A DNA stretch of 64,000 bases from Escherichia coli (GTDB taxonomy: Bacteria; Pseudomonadota; Gammaproteobacteria; Enterobacterales; Enterobacteriaceae), in assembly GCF_003334405.1 (NCBI RefSeq), contig NZ_QOWM01000006.1; one strand, 5' to 3'. This document shows positions 1 through 51,478 of this stretch, one piece after another. Every line of letters starts with the position of its first letter. The stretch's first letter is position 1. Position numbers and translations under genes: made by a program. The notes under the pieces are model-generated. The model was given only the letters and a program-made list of their open reading frames with translations, did not search any database and was not told where the DNA came from.

Positions 1-1682
1 GTACCATGCAGGGCCGTCGCTGGTCCGATGGTCTGCACCAGGCTGTGGAAGCGAAAGAAGGTGTGCAGATCCAGAACGAAAACCAAACGCTGGCTTCGAT
101 CACCTTCCAGAACTACTTCCGTCTGTATGAAAAACTGGCGGGGATGACCGGTACTGCTGATACCGAAGCTTTCGAATTTAGCTCAATCTACAAGCTGGAT
201 ACCGTCGTTGTTCCGACCAACCGTCCAATGATTCGTAAAGATCTGCCGGACCTGGTCTACATGACTGAAGCGGAAAAAATTCAGGCGATCATTGAAGATA
301 TCAAAGAACGTACTGCGAAAGGCCAGCCGGTGCTGGTGGGTACTATCTCCATCGAAAAATCGGAGCTGGTGTCAAACGAACTGACCAAAGCCGGTATTAA
401 GCACAACGTCCTGAACGCCAAATTCCACGCCAACGAAGCGGCGATTGTTGCTCAGGCAGGTTATCCGGCTGCGGTGACTATCGCGACCAATATGGCGGGT
501 CGTGGTACAGATATTGTGCTCGGTGGTAGCTGGCAGGCAGAAGTTGCCGCGCTGGAAAATCCGACCGCAGAGCAAATTGAAAAAATTAAAGCCGACTGGC
601 AGGTACGTCACGATGCGGTACTGGAAGCAGGTGGCCTGCATATCATCGGTACCGAGCGTCACGAATCCCGTCGTATCGATAACCAGTTGCGCGGTCGTTC
701 TGGTCGTCAGGGGGATGCTGGTTCTTCCCGTTTCTACCTGTCGATGGAAGATGCGCTGATGCGTATTTTTGCTTCCGACCGAGTATCCGGCATGATGCGT
801 AAACTGGGTATGAAGCCAGGCGAAGCCATTGAACACCCGTGGGTGACTAAAGCGATTGCCAACGCCCAGCGTAAAGTTGAAAGCCGTAACTTCGACATTC
901 GTAAGCAACTGCTGGAATATGATGACGTGGCTAACGATCAGCGTCGCGCCATTTACTCCCAGCGTAACGAACTGTTGGATGTCAGCGATGTGAGCGAAAC
1001 CATTAACAGCATTCGTGAAGATGTGTTCAAAGCGACCATTGATGCCTACATTCCACCACAGTCGCTGGAAGAAATGTGGGATATTCCGGGGCTGCAGGAA
1101 CGTCTGAAGAACGATTTCGACCTCGATTTGCCAATTGCCGAGTGGCTGGATAAAGAACCAGAACTGCATGAAGAGACGCTGCGTGAGCGCATTCTGGCGC
1201 AGTCCATCGAAGTGTATCAGCGTAAAGAAGAAGTGGTTGGTGCTGAGATGATGCGTCACTTCGAGAAAGGCGTCATGCTGCAAACGCTTGACTCCCTGTG
1301 GAAAGAGCACCTGGCAGCGATGGACTATCTGCGTCAGGGTATCCACCTGCGTGGCTACGCACAGAAAGATCCGAAGCAGGAATACAAACGTGAATCGTTC
1401 TCCATGTTTGCAGCGATGCTGGAGTCGTTGAAATATGAAGTTATCAGTACGCTGAGCAAAGTTCAGGTACGTATGCCTGAAGAGGTTGAGGAGCTGGAAC
1501 AACAGCGTCGTATGGAAGCCGAGCGTTTAGCGCAAATGCAGCAGCTTAGCCATCAGGATGACGACTCTGCAGCCGCAGCTGCACTGGCGGCGCAAACCGG
1601 AGAGCGCAAAGTAGGACGTAACGATCCTTGCCCGTGCGGTTCTGGTAAAAAATACAAGCAGTGCCATGGCCGCCTGCAATAA
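1..1682 (+). CDS. secA: Preprotein translocase ATPase SecA, C-terminal part (5' end lies outside the window)
   Basis: 558-aa ORF open to the window start; ends with the zinc-binding tail [17 protein letters not shown] characteristic of SecA. Confidence 0.95.
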
Positions 1683-1703
1683 AAGCTAACTGTTGAAGTA
1701 AAA

Positions 1704-1727
1704 GGCGCAGGATTCTGCGCCTTTTTT
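1704..1727 (+). terminator. Intrinsic terminator-like hairpin after secA (ggcgcag/ctgcgcc stem plus T-tract)
   Basis: 7-bp perfect stem, 4-nt loop, followed by TTTTTT; lies between the secA stop and the mutT start. Confidence 0.6.
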
Positions 1728-1741
1728 ATAGGTTTAAGACA

Positions 1742-2131
1742 ATGAAAAAGCTGCAAATTGCGGTAGGTATTATTCGCAACGAGAACAATGAAATCTTTAT
1801 AACGCGTCGCGCAGCAGATGCGCACATGGCGAATAAACTGGAGTTTCCCGGCGGTAAAATTGAAATGGGTGAAACGCCGGAACAGGCGGTGGTGCGTGAA
1901 CTTCAGGAAGAAGTCGGGATTACCCCCCAACATTTTTCGCTATTTGAAAAACTGGAATATGAATTCCCGGACAGGCATATAACACTGTGGTTTTGGCTGG
2001 TCGAACGCTGGGAAGGGGAGCCGTGGGGTAAAGAAGGGCAACCCGGTGAGTGGATGTCGCTGGTCGGTCTTAATGCCGATGATTTTCCGCCAGCCAATGA
2101 ACCGGTAATTGCGAAGCTTAAACGTCTGTAG
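1742..2131 (+). CDS. mutT: 8-oxo-dGTP diphosphatase (Nudix)
   Basis: 129-aa ORF with Nudix box GGKIEMGETPEQAVVRELQEEVG; sequence recognised as MutT. Confidence 0.95.
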   Translation: MKKLQIAVGIIRNENNEIFITRRAADAHMANKLEFPGGKIEMGETPEQAVVRELQEEVGITPQHFSLFEKLEYEFPDRHITLWFWLVERWEGEPWGKEGQPGEWMSLVGLNADDFPPANEPVIAKLKRL

Positions 2132-2209
2132 GTCAGATAAGGCGTTTTCGCCGCATCCGACATTCGCACACGATGCCTGATGCGACGCTGGCGCGTCTTA
2201 TCAGGCCTA
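2128..2209. repeat. REP/BIME element (two inverted REP units)
   Basis: Units gtaggtcagataaggcgttttcgccgcatccgacat and gatgcctgatgcgacgctggcgcgtcttatcaggcctaa match the E. coli REP family; first unit overlaps the mutT stop codon. Confidence 0.8.
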
Positions 2210-2243: not shown

Positions 2244-2326
<83 letters not shown>

Positions 2327-2553: not shown

Positions 2554-3297
2554 TTAGCAACAGGCCAGTTCGAAATCCAGACGTTCCGGTACCTGTCCGT
2601 TTTCAGTGTCCAGCGGCATAAAACGAATGGCAAAACGGCTCTTATGTCCGGAAATTTGCGGATAAAGCTGTGAATCGAGCGACAGATTCAGGCGCAGCAA
2701 GTCGGCATCGCCACCGTTATCCTGATAAAAACCATTCAGGCTGGTTTGTTTACGGAAGGGGGCCGACTGGCGAATTAAATCCAGCACCATGGTAAGTGCC
2801 TGGGTGAGCGGGTTCAGGCTGGCAATCCAGGTTTCTACCTGGCTGTCGCGCTGCGCCTGGGGTAGATGCAGCCAAATGTGCAATGTAGGTAAATCAAAGC
2901 TGCAACAGCCGCCTGGGATGCTCAGTCGCTGACGCACCAGAGCAATCAAACGATCTTCACGCAGAAATTGCCCGATACGCGGCGCGGAAATTAATACGCT
3001 CCCCGCCGCTTTTAACTGCTGAATTAATGCTTCAATACGGCTCTGGTCCACGCCAGGCACGCCAATCCAGGTCTGGAGTTTACGTTGCTGCCGGTCAAGT
3101 TCTTTCAACAGCTCAGTGCGGACTTCGCCGCGCTCGAAAACATCCAGTAATTCACTGACATTACGGAAGAAATGCAGCGCGCCAGCGTGGTCAACGATGG
3201 GTAAATTAACGGTGAGTTGCTGAATCAAAAACTCAATGCGCAGCCATGTACGCATTTTTTCATTTAGTGGATGTTCAAAAAGGACCTGGGTCTGCAT
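2554..3297 (-). CDS. zapD: Cell division protein ZapD
   Basis: 247-aa ORF recognised as ZapD (YacF); 1-nt overlap with the coaE stop. Confidence 0.9.
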
Positions 3298-3917
3298 TAC
3301 GGTTTTTCCTGTGAGACAAACTGCGACGCAAGCTGCAAATAGTGTGCGTGCAGGCGGGCAACATCCGATGCGATAGCATCCGGTGCGCCGTTATTATCAA
3401 TGACGTCATCTGCCACGGCAAGGCGGGCTTCGCGCGTTGCCTGAGCAGCAAGGATTTGTTCGACATGCTCGCGAGTTACATCATCGCGCTGCATGGTGCG
3501 CTTAAGTTGCGTTTCTGGGCTGACATCCACCACAAGCACTCGATTCGCTTTTTTATACAGTGAGTTTTCTACCAGCAATGGCACAACCCACAGTACATAG
3601 GGGGAAGTAGCTTGCTGGATCTGGTGTTGCGTCTCTTGCTGAATCAGCGGATGCAGCAGGGCGTTAAGCCAGTTTTTCTCTTCCGGGTTGGCGAAGATCC
3701 GCTCGCGCAAGGCCCGGCGCTGCAATGTTCCATCAGCAGCAATCATGTTAGCGCCAAAGTGATCAGCAATGGCATGTAGCGCAGGTGCACCTGGTTCAAC
3801 CACCTGACGCGCAATAATATCGGCATCAATGACGTTAATTCCGAGATCAGCAAACGCATTGGCAACGGTACTCTTGCCACTGCCAATGCCTCCCGTTAAG
3901 GCAACTATATACCTCAT
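3297..3917 (-). CDS. coaE: Dephospho-CoA kinase
   Basis: 206-aa ORF with P-loop GGIGSGKST at the N-terminus. Confidence 0.95.
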
Positions 3918-4141
3918 AATTTATATTCCCGGGAATTCATCATGATTATCAAAACGTTAAAAATGAGTGCACGAAAGCGAAATTGATGAAACGTTCGCTC
4001 ACTATTTACCAGGTAAATTTATGGGATTGTAGCGTAAAAAAAGACAATTTCGCAGTCTTGCGCCGCATTGATTAGTGCGTATGATAGCGTCACTGGAGTT
4101 GCGCTCTTACCCTTATAGCCATTAACCCCAGGAATCCGCAC

Positions 4142-47949: not shown

Positions 47950-48429
47950 TTACCATTTGTTTAATTTGTCAAATGCTCTTGTATGTAAGATTTGACGCAA
48001 CATCTCCCCATCAGGAAACACCAACTCCGGCGCGATTTCAAACAGCGGCCACAGCATAAATCCACGATTCTTCATATCGTAGTGCGGAACGGTCAGGCGT
48101 TCAGTATTTATCACTTCATTACCAAACAGCATGATGTCGAGATCCAGCGTGCGTGGTCCCCAGCGTTCAGCTTTGCGGACGCGACCTTGCTGCAATTCAA
48201 TACGCTGTGTGTGATTGAGTAGCTCTTCAGGTGCAAGAGAGGTTTCCAGCGCCACGGCTGCGTTTAAGTAATCGGGTTGATCTTGCGGCCCCAGCGGTGG
48301 GGTGCGGTAAAACGAAGAAACGGTAAGAATGTGGCTTTCAGGGATATCGCCTAATGCTTTCAGGGCAGCATTGACCTGCTCCAGCGGAGAGGCCAGATTG
48401 CTGCCTATGGCAATATACGCCACTGTCAT
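47950..48429 (-). CDS. folK: 2-amino-4-hydroxy-6-hydroxymethyldihydropteridine pyrophosphokinase
   Basis: 159-aa ORF recognised as FolK; start overlaps the pcnB stop (ATGA-type junction). Confidence 0.95.
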
Positions 48430-49823
48430 GCGGTACCCTCACGACGTGGTGCGCGTTTGCGTGGACGACGAGTACGACGACGCGGTGACGGTTCTTCATC
48501 CAGCTCGTTGAGCATCCCTTTTTGGTCTGGTGGCGCGGAAACCTGGAACTCACCCCACCATTTCACCAGACGCTGCAGTTCAGCGTTACGCTCAACTTCA
48601 GCTCGCAAGGCCAACAGGTCATAAGCCGCACGGAACTTAGGATGCTCCAGCAGTTTCCATGCGCGTTTACCCTGACGACGGGACATACGCAACTGCAACT
48701 GCCAGATATCGCGGGTTAATGTCGTCAGACGTTTCGGGATTGCCAGTGAACGGCAGGCTTCGTCCAGCACGTCGTTCATCGCCAGCGCGAAAGCGTCGTG
48801 ATAGGTCAGGCCGCTTTCCTGGGCGATCTTCTGTGCCGTCTCCAGCAGTGGGTACCAGAACATGGCGGCAAACAGGAACGCCGGGTTCACGCGCATATCG
48901 TTATGGATACGCGTATCGGTATTCTTCAGCACCTGTTCAATGATCCGCTCCATCGGGCTGTCGCCATTTTCCGTGAAGTAGCGGGTAATGGTCGGGAACA
49001 GCGGCTGGAACAGATGATATTCACACAACAGCTTATAGGTTTCGTAACCGTAGCCCGCTTGTAGCAGTTTAAGCGATTCTTCAAACAGGCGTGCCGGTGG
49101 GATATCGTTCAGCAGGGTAGCGAGGCGAGGGATCGGTTCTGCGGTTTCCGGGCTGATGCGCATACCCAATTTGGCGGCAAAACGTACCGCGCGCAGCATA
49201 CGTACCGGATCTTCACGGTAGCGCGTTTCCGGGTTACCAATCAGACGGATAACGCCGTCCTTCAGATCCTTCATGCCGCCAACGTAATCACGGACGGTAA
49301 AATCCGCTACGCTGTAATACAGGCTGTTGATAGTGAAATCGCGGCGCTGGGCGTCTTCTTCGATGGAGCCGAAAATGTTGTCGCGCAGCAACATGCCGTT
49401 TTGCCCGCGTTGGGAGGTCGTGCGGTCGCTGACGTTACCTTCGTGGTGTCCACGGAAGGTCGCAACTTCGATAATCTCCGGGCCAAACATTACATGAGCC
49501 AGACGGAAACGGCGACCCACCAGGCGGCAGTTACGGAACAGTTTGCGCACCTGCTCAGGCGTGGCGTTAGTGGTTACGTCAAAATCTTTCGGCTTTTTGC
49601 CAAGTAACAGGTCGCGCACGCCGCCGCCAACCAGCCAGGCTTCGTATCCCGCTTTATTGAGCCTGTACATTACCTTCAGGGCATTTTCACTGATATCTTT
49701 GCGGGAAATAGCATGCTGCTCACGCGGGATCACCGTCACCTGTGGACGGGCGACTGCCTGTTCAGCCTCGCTTTCCTCGCGGCTTAGCACCTTGCGGCAA
49801 AAATTAGCGACTCGGGTAAAAAT
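48426..49823 (-). CDS. pcnB: Poly(A) polymerase I
   Basis: Recognised as PcnB; start assigned to the AUU codon at 49821-49823 (literature-reported non-canonical start) rather than the upstream in-frame TTG at 49844. Confidence 0.85.
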
Positions 49824-49882
49824 AGTACACCTCGGTAGTGTCAAACATCATTCAGGACAAAAAAATAGCGGCTAATCATAGC

Positions 49883-50779
49883 TCAGCATGACGCATTTGA
49901 GAATGTTGAATTTACAATTGCCGACTCGGGCACGGCGGTAAGCCGCCAGTTTTTGACGGCTGACTGAAGGATTTGCTCGACGCTGAAATCCTGCCAGTGT
50001 GCTTCTGCCTGCTGCCCCAGAAATTGAAGTGCCGCGATTAGTACCGGGCGTGGATCGCCTTTCGGCAACGCAGGCGCATGATTCTGCTTGGAAAGTTTAG
50101 CGCCTTGTGGATTAAGCGCCAGCGGCAGATGAATGTAATCTGGCACTTTCCAGCCAAAAAGCTGGTACAGCGAGATTTGCCTTACTGTTGGTTCAATCAG
50201 ATCAGCCCCACGCACTATTTCTGTAACGCCCTGGAAATGATCATCAACCACAACAGCCAGGTTGTAGGCGAACAACCCATCACGGCGATGAATGATAAAA
50301 TCTTCCCGTGCCAGTTTTTCGTCGGCGTGAATAATGCCGCGCAGCTGGTCAGTAAATTGCGTGACCGGATGCTGCTGGCGGATACGCACTGCGGCGTTGT
50401 CTGGTCCATGATGCAACACCCGGCAATGACCGTCGTAAATACCGCCAATGCTTTGAATACGCGCACGCGTACAGGTGCAGTAATAACTTAGTCCTTGTTC
50501 ATGTAACCAGGCGAGTGCTTCACGATAGGCGTCGTGACGTTGCGATTGCCAGAGAACATCGCCGTCCCAGTGCAGACCGTAATGTTCCAGCTGGCGCAGG
50601 ATAGTTTCTGCGGCACCGGGAACTTCACGAGGCGGGTCGATATCTTCTATGCGTACCAGCCAGCGACCTTGCCGGGCGCGAGCCTGCAAATAGCTGCCGA
50701 GCGCGGCGATCAGAGAGCCAAAATGAAGCTCGCCGGAAGGAGAGGGGGCGAAGCGGCCAATATACTGTGTGTCTGTCAT
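49883..50779 (-). CDS. gluQ: Glutamyl-Q tRNA(Asp) synthetase
   Basis: Truncated GluRS catalytic domain paralogue; start placed at [16 protein letters not shown]; an in-frame upstream start at 50809 is possible. Confidence 0.85.
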
Positions 50780-50845
50780 CTCTTTGAACAAAAAATAAGG
50801 CGGGAGCATTTCCCGCCTGTGGTAAACGTGATGGAACGGCTGTAA

Positions 50846-51301
50846 TTAGCCAGCCATCTGTTTTTCGCGAATTTCAGCCAGCGTTTTGCAGTCGATGCAC
50901 AGATCGGCTGTCGGGCGCGCTTCCAGACGGCGAATACCAATTTCAACACCGCAGGATTCGCAGTAGCCGAAATCTTCGTCTTCCACTTTTTTCAGCGTCT
51001 TCTCGATCTTTTTGATCAGCTTACGCTCGCGATCGCGGTTACGCAGTTCGAGGCTGAACTCTTCTTCCTGGGCTGCACGGTCTACCGGGTCCGGGAAGTT
51101 GGCTGCTTCATCCTGCATATGTGTAACGGTGCGATCGACTTCATCCCTGAGTTGATTACGCCATGCTTCCAGAATACGACGGAAGTGCGCCAGCTGGGCT
51201 TCATTCATATACTCTTCGCCCGGCTTCTCCTGATATGGTTCCACCCCAGCGATGGCGAGAATACTCAGGGACGATGTTTTACGGTTTTGCCCTTCTTGCA
51301 T
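50846..51301 (-). CDS. dksA: RNA polymerase-binding transcription factor DksA
   Basis: Start placed at [11 protein letters not shown]...; C4 zinc finger [25 protein letters not shown]. Confidence 0.95.
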
Positions 51302-51478
51302 GTTGCTTCTCCTTAACACGCACTATCGATCCCCATGTTCGGGGGAAAAATGAGGCCGCTATAAATAGCAGATGCTTTTCCGGATAGCAATTATCTAAAC
51401 GTAACACTTGACAACTGTGTGAGGAAAAGCGTATTTGCGCACGCGACCAGAATGTAAATTAACCAGTTACTTACTTTA

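Follow-up and report, generated by a model that had tools for sequence, protein, structure and literature searches.

Poly(A) polymerase I (PAP I), the product of pcnB, is a toxic RNA-tailing enzyme that is present in a few dozen molecules per cell. [quoted passage not shown] Regarding pcnB of Escherichia coli K-12, experimental proof of an AUU start is attributed by citing papers to Binns and Masters (2002; Mol Microbiol 44:1287, PMID 12068810), and the AUU is treated as an established, expression-limiting start in reports that cite this work (PMC2939334, PMC3561954, PMC9764084, PMC4447247, PMC5499595, PMC4245954, PMC9410913, and bioRxiv 10.1101/063800). Among these, PMC3561954, PMC9764084 and PMC4447247 state that PAP I synthesis is limited by the AUU, and bioRxiv 10.1101/063800, PMC5499595, PMC4245954 and PMC9410913 name infC and pcnB as the sole two (confirmed) AUU-initiated genes of E. 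coli. The other confirmed case, infC, encodes IF3, and according to PMC4447247 the weak codon limits expression in both infC and pcnB. The same paper describes ebpA of Enterococcus faecalis, which resembles pcnB in that a rare ATT start attenuates its expression and in that the gene has been annotated from another codon. The original prediction for the locus described here held that AUU initiation is rare in E. coli apart from infC and limits PcnB synthesis, and the papers citing Binns and Masters agree with it on both points. In the searchable literature text, no initiation-site ribosome profiling (retapamulin, TetRP) or N-terminal proteomics for PcnB was found.

The start region of pcnB

The window, by which the whole analysed stretch of 64,000 nucleotides of E. 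coli DNA is meant, carries pcnB on its minus strand, flanked by gluQRS and folK. The start region and its surroundings contain the following features.

48426..49823, minus strand: pcnB coding sequence, AUU-initiated, encoding poly(A) polymerase I of 465 aa, plus stop (RefSeq annotation)
49821..49823, minus strand: ATT (AUU) start codon of pcnB, read as fMet and followed by FTRVANF (RefSeq CDS start; found in 80/80 species)
49828..49833, minus strand: Shine-Dalgarno (SD) sequence GAGGTG for the ATT (GAGG, 6 nt, ATT; spacing invariant in 80/80 species)
49842..49844, minus strand: in-frame TTG at -7 codons from the ATT, a decoy (start taken by the ORF lister)
49848..49850, minus strand: in-frame TGA nine codons 5' of the ATT, closing the frame (direct sequence reading)
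49788..49790, minus strand: GTG codon 12, first canonical in-frame codon 3' of the ATT, a second decoy (80/80 species)
49668..49670, minus strand: ATG codon 52, candidate start of a minor isoform (sole in-frame ATG within the first 80 codons)
49883..50779, minus strand: gluQRS, the gene upstream of pcnB, whose 3' end holds the pcnB promoter region (RefSeq mapping and ORF list)
47950..48429, minus strand: folK, the gene downstream of pcnB (RefSeq mapping and ORF list)

Read 5' to 3' on the minus strand, the codons are TGA (49850-49848), TGT, TTG (49844-49842), ACA, CTA, CCG, AGG, TGT, ACT, ATT (49823-49821), TTT, ACC, CGA, GTC, GCT, AAT and TTT. The TTG is located two codons past the in-frame stop, and the ATT seven codons beyond the TTG. 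The gap to the ATT is 4 nt from GAGGTG and 6 nt from GAGG. In the mechanical ORF list, the gene appears as 48426..49844 (-), with 472 aa and TTG 49844-49842 as the start. The original prediction had noted this call and had assigned the N-terminus MFTRVANF to the ATT at 49821-49823 read as Met; the ORF lister reproduces the former, and the latter is upheld by the sequence, the RefSeq CDS start and an exact protein match. The coordinates stated in that prediction were all found to be correct. In RefSeq record NZ_AP018808, in which the gene order is dksA-gluQRS-pcnB-folK, the pcnB CDS at locus positions 2678-4075 corresponds to window positions 49823-48426, beginning at the ATT and encoding 465 aa. 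With Met replacing Ile, this product matches exactly the UniProt entry named PCNB_ECOLI. At the 3' end of the gene, the pcnB TGA overlaps the folK ATG as ATGA (48429-48426).

The encoded protein and E. coli PcnB are 100% identical, and the gluQRS-pcnB-folK synteny is present. Precomputed Pfam assignments on the PcnB homologue cluster are PF01743, PF12627 and PF12626, and the PDB entries matched as 'Poly(A) polymerase' (3AQK/3AQL/3AQM) span residues 28/29-442, with the N-terminus outside the structures. Orthology and the head, RNA-binding and Arg-rich C-terminal domains place the protein as poly(A) polymerase I, a class II nucleotidyltransferase. Of 5426 complete E. coli genomes, 5425 matched a 301-nt query around the start, the genes annotated under the match being pcnB and gluQRS, and an 85-nt initiation region was identical in 5404 of the 5425. 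The other 21 genomes vary in these 85 nt; one of them was inspected, and its change (T7 to T6, located 5' of the TTG) is uninformative on the TTG-ATT frame. The motif GAGGTGNNNNATT occurs once in the window, with 0.43 occurrences expected, and is not rare by itself; the significance of the ATT/SD motif is due to its conservation in 80/80 species and not to rarity in a single sequence.

Conservation and ribosome-binding potential

The comparative set consisted of the pcnB locus from 80 species-level Enterobacteriaceae genomes with 86-100% protein identity, including Escherichia, Citrobacter, Salmonella, Kluyvera, Enterobacter, Klebsiella/Raoultella, Kosakonia, Leclercia, relatives of Cronobacter, and others. 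In all 80 species, ATT is retained at the homologous position, so that the AUU is conserved among orthologues, and GAGG lies exactly 6 nt 5' of it. The invariant block of the alignment starts at GAGGTG. The open stretch 5' of the ATT most frequently comprises 8 codons (30/80 species). In the coding direction, the amino acids of codons 2-13 are unchanged across the 80 species, and codons 2-11 contain just five variable nucleotides, all of which are synonymous third positions. Synonymous diversity in codons 1-12 is 0.105 (mean over the gene, 0.559), the lowest value among 345 windows (rank 1). Coding conservation thereby runs up to the AUU, and in most species the ATT is the sole way to reach the conserved N-terminal segment.

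The ribosome-binding potential of each candidate start was calculated as the energy of the duplex between the 20 nt 5' of the codon and the 3' end of 16S rRNA, with the following results.

ATT: -7.2 kcal/mol, among the best ~2% of 20-mers taken at random from the window
TTG (-7): +0.4 kcal/mol, no SD
GTG codon 12: +0.5 kcal/mol, no SD; AAGG directly adjoining the codon (zero spacing)
GTG codon 29: -2.6 kcal/mol
GTG codon 31: -3.8 kcal/mol
ATG codon 52: -3.9 kcal/mol, AAGGU at zero spacing

Over the 80 species, the energy for the ATT ranges only from -7.2 to -6.9 kcal/mol. The mean for GTG-12 is +0.29 kcal/mol, and the mean for the 39 upstream canonical candidates is -0.32 kcal/mol, the best of which is an isolated -5.5 kcal/mol for a TTG located 24 codons upstream in one species. 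An SD at functional spacing is found for the AUU and not for the rival codons in 80/80 species; the position of an SD relative to the ATT, proposed in the original prediction as a check on its reading, therefore speaks for the ATT (GAGG 6 nt upstream, -7.2 kcal/mol). Judged by its sequence, the SD itself is good (the 6-nt GAGGUG at near-optimal spacing), and the weak element is the codon. This is at odds with the 'poor ribosome binding site' with which pcnB is described in PMC3561954 and PMC9764084.

Folding of the RNA between the presumed 5' end and codon 18 is no stronger than that of its shuffles (z = +1.33), and because this region is unstructured, the initiation site is accessible. A hairpin sequestering the SD, in which CG.GGUG pairs with UACCCG and the AUU is placed in the loop (centroid -4.5 kcal/mol), was considered and rejected: besides this z value, its stem is invariant in the 80 species and shows no covariation, and the pairing is lost in Thorsellia and partly lost in the relative of 67% identity described below. 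An out-of-frame upstream ORF of 15 codons, from ATGATG at 49851 to TAA at 49804, was likewise rejected as a regulatory element, as it has no SD (+1.3 and +0.4 kcal/mol); its ATGs at 49851 are missing in most genera of the 80-species alignment. No Rfam family was hit near the locus at the pcnB 5' UTR.

Relatives beyond the Enterobacteriaceae were sampled as representatives of 50%-identity clusters, together with the contigs encoding them. A relative with a 5-Mb genome (L083, 67% identity) reads GAGGTGTACC-ATT. Candidatus Erwinia haradaeae, an endosymbiont with a 1.08-Mb genome (62% identity), reads GAGGTGTCCT-ATT, and the ATT is its annotated start. Thorsellia kenyensis, also at 62% identity, reads GAGGTGTATT-ATT, and its record begins at a downstream GTG equivalent to GTG-12. 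The arrangement GAGGTG-N4-ATT is kept in both Candidatus Erwinia haradaeae and Thorsellia kenyensis. A metagenomic relative at 55% identity reads GAGGATAGAGTT-ATT-ATT. At 54% identity, one relative has ATC near the ATT position, no canonical codon before the conserved peptide, and a good SD with an ATG further down, to which its start may have been relocated. Homologues at 43-50% identity, including one from a betaproteobacterial MAG, share a hydrophobic/basic N-terminal motif with PcnB, and at the protein level their predicted products start with Met 0-4 residues from the ATT position. According to PMC3561954, Binns and Masters had already reported phylogenetic evidence of AUU in other Proteobacteria.

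Competing start codons and the public record

Regarding the transcript on which these codons would lie, two promoter elements located upstream are relevant.

49875..49903, minus strand: sigma-70-like promoter, TTCTCA-17 nt-TATGAT, overlapping the gluQRS stop codon (consensus scan)
50094..50099, minus strand: TAAACT, the -10 element of the published sigma-S promoter pS2 (PMC2939334)

The -10 block of the sigma-70-like promoter, GCTATGATTAGCCGC, is conserved in 72 of the 80 species, and its -35-like element, ATTCTCAA, in 70. This promoter is presumably the published pB, and it would place the 5' end of the transcript near 49868, upstream of the TTG. The TTG is therefore probably on the mRNA. Exclusion of the TTG by transcription was considered as an explanation and rejected, since the predicted 5' end near 49868 precedes it; the TTG thus appears to be disregarded for want of an SD, not for want of transcription. 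In PMC2939334, the pS2 start sites are numbered -263 to -265 relative to ATT as the start codon of translation, and the -10 element is given as TAAACT. Counted from 49823, these positions are 50086-50088 of the window, 6-8 nt 3' of TAAACT. As the pS2 coordinates map back onto TAAACT at 50099-50094, the ATT of that study is the ATT at 49823.

Translation from TTG 49844-49842, which would give 472 aa and make the ATT an ordinary internal Ile codon, can draw on the TTG being the first canonical codon after the in-frame stop, on its probable presence on the transcript, on the wide deposition of the 472-aa form (including under a MULTISPECIES RefSeq-style name), and on the introduction of PMC3561954, where the start is given as 'UUG'. 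However, the discussion of the same paper gives AUU, current RefSeq and UniProt use the ATT, and the TTG has no SD. In 43 of the 80 species, there is no in-frame ATG, GTG or TTG between the upstream stop and the ATT at all, and of the remaining 37, 26 have TTG at -7, two, both Salmonella subspecies, have ATG at -7, and nine have TTG at -10/-11. The sequence 5' of CGAGGTG is marked by 1-nt deletions (TA-CGAGGTG in Enterobacter, Lelliottia and Raoultella/Klebsiella), by 3-nt and longer insertions, and by free substitution, and the 1-nt indels before the SD break the TTG frame in these genera and others. All four bases of the N4 spacer between SD and ATT are variable, and the resulting changes in the TTG frame, at codons -1 and -2, are non-synonymous (Thr, Asn, Ala, Pro, Ile) even inside Escherichia. 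The description of the TTG as a decoy in the original prediction is thereby borne out by the absence of a canonical upstream codon in most species, the frame-breaking indels and the missing SD, and initiation at the TTG is considered highly improbable. A start at GTG codon 12 (49790-49788), which would give a 454-aa protein beginning MLSREES and turn everything upstream into 5' UTR, is favoured by the invariance of this GTG as the first canonical in-frame codon 3' of the ATT in 80/80 species, by the presence of the 454-aa form in public records, including older O157:H7 annotations, and by the annotation of Thorsellia kenyensis from the equivalent codon. Against it, the GTG has no SD, the AAGG abutting it directly, and distant homologues share the basic/hydrophobic N-terminal motif, predicted from a Met at the position equivalent to the ATT. 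Furthermore, as codons 2-13 are invariant in amino acid and the substitutions in codons 2-11 are purely synonymous third-position changes, the peptide 5' of GTG-12 is under protein-level selection and hence translated. Since the segment before it is translated, GTG-12 is discarded as the start, its residual probability being minimal.

An additional shorter isoform, initiated at ATG-52 (49670-49668) on the pS1 transcript, would supplement the AUU start and not replace it. For the sigma-S promoter pS1, located inside the coding region, activity was shown in vitro with sigma-S and, under special conditions, also in vivo, and two bands were seen in anti-PAP I western blots (PMC2939334). In addition, synonymous diversity in codons 33-50, directly 5' of this ATG, is second from the bottom within the gene (0.25; mean, 0.56). 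On the other side, ATG is found at codon 52 in only 23 of the 80 species and Leu in the other 57, the AAGGU preceding it has zero spacing, the product would lack residues 1-51, and the authors of PMC2939334 themselves called such an isoform unproven and unlikely. It is regarded here as doubtful. PMC2939334 also discusses a start proposed in 1989, designated +1(b). This start was probably ATG-52, because it is the sole in-frame ATG in the first 80 codons and the first two downstream canonical codons are GTGs.

The original prediction also held that the pcnB start is easily mis-annotated, and the public databases illustrate this with four N-terminal versions of the protein.

472 aa, start TTG: at least 1000 contigs
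465 aa, start ATT: at least 1000 contigs
454 aa, start GTG-12: at least 1000 contigs
414 aa, start ATG-52: 39 contigs

The lengths in the homologue list are scattered accordingly (465, 472, 454, 447, 464 and 466 aa). The label 'decoy' is justified by the circulation of these four versions of one protein, and it extends beyond the TTG to GTG codon 12 and ATG codon 52, both of which are used as starts in public records. In Salmonella, the codon at -7 is a canonical ATG, and the 2921 member sequences of a Salmonella enterica cluster are represented at 472 aa, counted from this ATG. The Salmonella clade (472 aa) and the Thorsellia clade (downstream GTG) are both probably annotated from the wrong codon.

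Proposed mechanism and relation to known systems

The reading preferred here, to which a probability of about 0.93 is assigned, is that pcnB is translated from the AUU at 49823-49821 to give the 465-aa MFTRVANF... protein, that the TTG is an unused codon of the 5' UTR, and that the AUU keeps the level of the enzyme low. The anatomy, annotation and conservation behind this reading come from the present analysis, the mapped start and the limitation of synthesis from literature citation, and the IF3 mechanism is one that we infer. In this mechanism, the GAGGUG SD, 4 nt upstream, would position the 30S subunit over the AUU, and the initiator tRNA would read the AUU as fMet to yield the 465-aa PcnB. 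As suggested by established knowledge, IF3 would discriminate against the non-canonical AUU, so that initiation would be inefficient and the toxic enzyme would be held at a very low level. Each mRNA would yield little protein, and the yield could increase under IF3 limitation. The TTG at -7, without an SD, would remain unused, its appearance as a start being an artefact of calling the first ATG, GTG or TTG after a stop.

Even synonymous sites are frozen across the 80 species in the block that extends from the SD to roughly codon 12 (49833-49788), and this observation, together with the lowest synonymous diversity in the gene, is the basis for a further reading in which the block is a cis-regulatory module beyond a ribosome-binding site with a weak codon. 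Such a module could be the site of an RNA or protein that acts in trans, or it could sense IF3 and tie PAP I synthesis to translational capacity or to the rate of growth. A related possibility is that Salmonella, with ATG at -7, produces a PcnB isoform longer by 7 residues. Both ideas are considered unlikely.

Compared with the known case of E. coli K-12 pcnB, as it is represented in the papers citing Binns and Masters (2002), the gene, the codon and the claim are the same, and nothing of substance differs. The AUU start of pcnB is already known, having been published in 2002; all checks made here are in agreement with it, and nothing categorically new is presented. The additions made here are modest: the 80/80 and 43/80 counts, the contrast in SD energy, the frozen synonymous sites, the four annotation variants, and the likely misannotations in Salmonella and Thorsellia. 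The practical point is annotation, as one E. coli protein exists in 472-, 465-, 454- and 414-aa versions, and the pcnB start would serve well as a positive control when start-site predictors or initiation-site profiling are evaluated. The biological point is that PAP I is kept scarce partly through a start codon that the ribosome dislikes. In infC, IF3 represses its own AUU and thereby forms a feedback loop, whereas the AUU of pcnB would be a constitutive throttle on a toxic enzyme; to our knowledge, no feedback acts on it. The ebpA gene of Enterococcus faecalis, as described in PMC4447247, differs from pcnB in encoding an unrelated protein, in belonging to a Gram-positive host, and in having been misannotated from a downstream ATG, not from an upstream TTG.

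Constraint and overlapping features around the AUU start

Comparison of 80 species-level Enterobacteriaceae genomes revealed that the block from the SD (GAGGTG) through codon 12 of pcnB (window 49788-49833, minus strand) is frozen even at its synonymous sites. Normalised synonymous entropy over codons 1-12 is 0.105 against a gene mean of 0.559, which is the minimum among 345 windows. The extent of this block corresponds approximately to the footprint expected of a 30S initiation complex; an additional regulatory role is conceivable but improbable.

An out-of-frame uORF runs across the same site, overlapping both the SD and the ATT initiation codon.

49804-49851, minus strand: uORF of 15 codons, ATG ATG TTT GAC ... 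CGC TAA

Duplex energies with the 3' end of 16S rRNA revealed no SD for this uORF, and its ATGs are absent from most other genera among the 80 species. For these two reasons it was rejected as a regulatory element and is probably meaningless.

After this block, synonymous diversity in pcnB is lowest, at about 0.25, over codons 33-50 (window 49674-49727, minus strand), a short way ahead of the in-frame ATG at codon 52. PMC2939334 places pS1, a sigma-S promoter within the coding region, in the stretch before this ATG, along with a putative SD.

Start-codon assignment in relatives and in print

The older assumption of a UUG start for pcnB persists in print: PMC3561954 gives the start codon as UUG in its introduction and as AUU in its discussion, citing the same reference for both. 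In Salmonella enterica subsp. diarizonae and arizonae (loci L021 and L022), a canonical ATG lies 21 nt upstream of the ATT, at the position of the E. coli decoy TTG, and Salmonella PcnB (P0027) is carried in databases as a 472-aa form with 2921 member sequences. The SD of the upstream ATG is weak (-0.9 and -3.1 kcal/mol), and GAGGTG-N4-ATT is intact in both loci. The 472-aa form would be either a clade-wide mis-annotation or a genuine longer isoform.

The annotated pcnB start of Thorsellia kenyensis (L086, about 350-400) is a downstream GTG, immediately upstream of which GAGGTGTATT-ATT and the N-terminal motif are found. In a 67%-identical relative (L083, 601-2098), gene calling split pcnB into pieces of 316 aa and 150 aa. 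A frameshift, loss of function as a pseudogene or an error in sequencing may account for the split.

Spacing and neighbouring genes

The distance from the gluQRS stop to the ATT is usually about 50-60 nt, as against 161-185 nt in 8 of the 80 species.

Upstream of pcnB, long gluQRS-pcnB gap: L019-L022, L033, L035, L069, L075

The conserved TATGAT block, the -10 of the sigma-70-like promoter candidate, is not adjacent to pcnB in these eight species, because about 100-130 nt of other sequence intervene. The two Raoultella genomes disagree on this point.

The mechanical ORFs of the two genes upstream of pcnB begin before their RefSeq starts.

50779-50809, minus strand: gluQRS, ORF from ATG 50809 vs RefSeq start 50779 (MTDTQYIG...)
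51301-51319, minus strand: dksA, ORF from GTG 51319 vs RefSeq start 51301

The rule of taking the first start after a stop over-extends three adjacent genes in the window, namely pcnB, gluQRS and dksA.

Elsewhere in the window, four Rfam matches at the gathering threshold bear no relation to the AUU start.

1658-1727, plus strand: STnc40
2131-2207, plus strand: naRNA4, copy 1
2247-2324, plus strand: naRNA4, copy 2
13599-13712, minus strand: tp2 sRNA

At the other end of pcnB, its stop codon overlaps the folK start in an ATGA (window 48426-48429, minus strand). As this stop/start overlap is a classic arrangement for translational coupling, folK output may depend in part on the weak initiation of pcnB.
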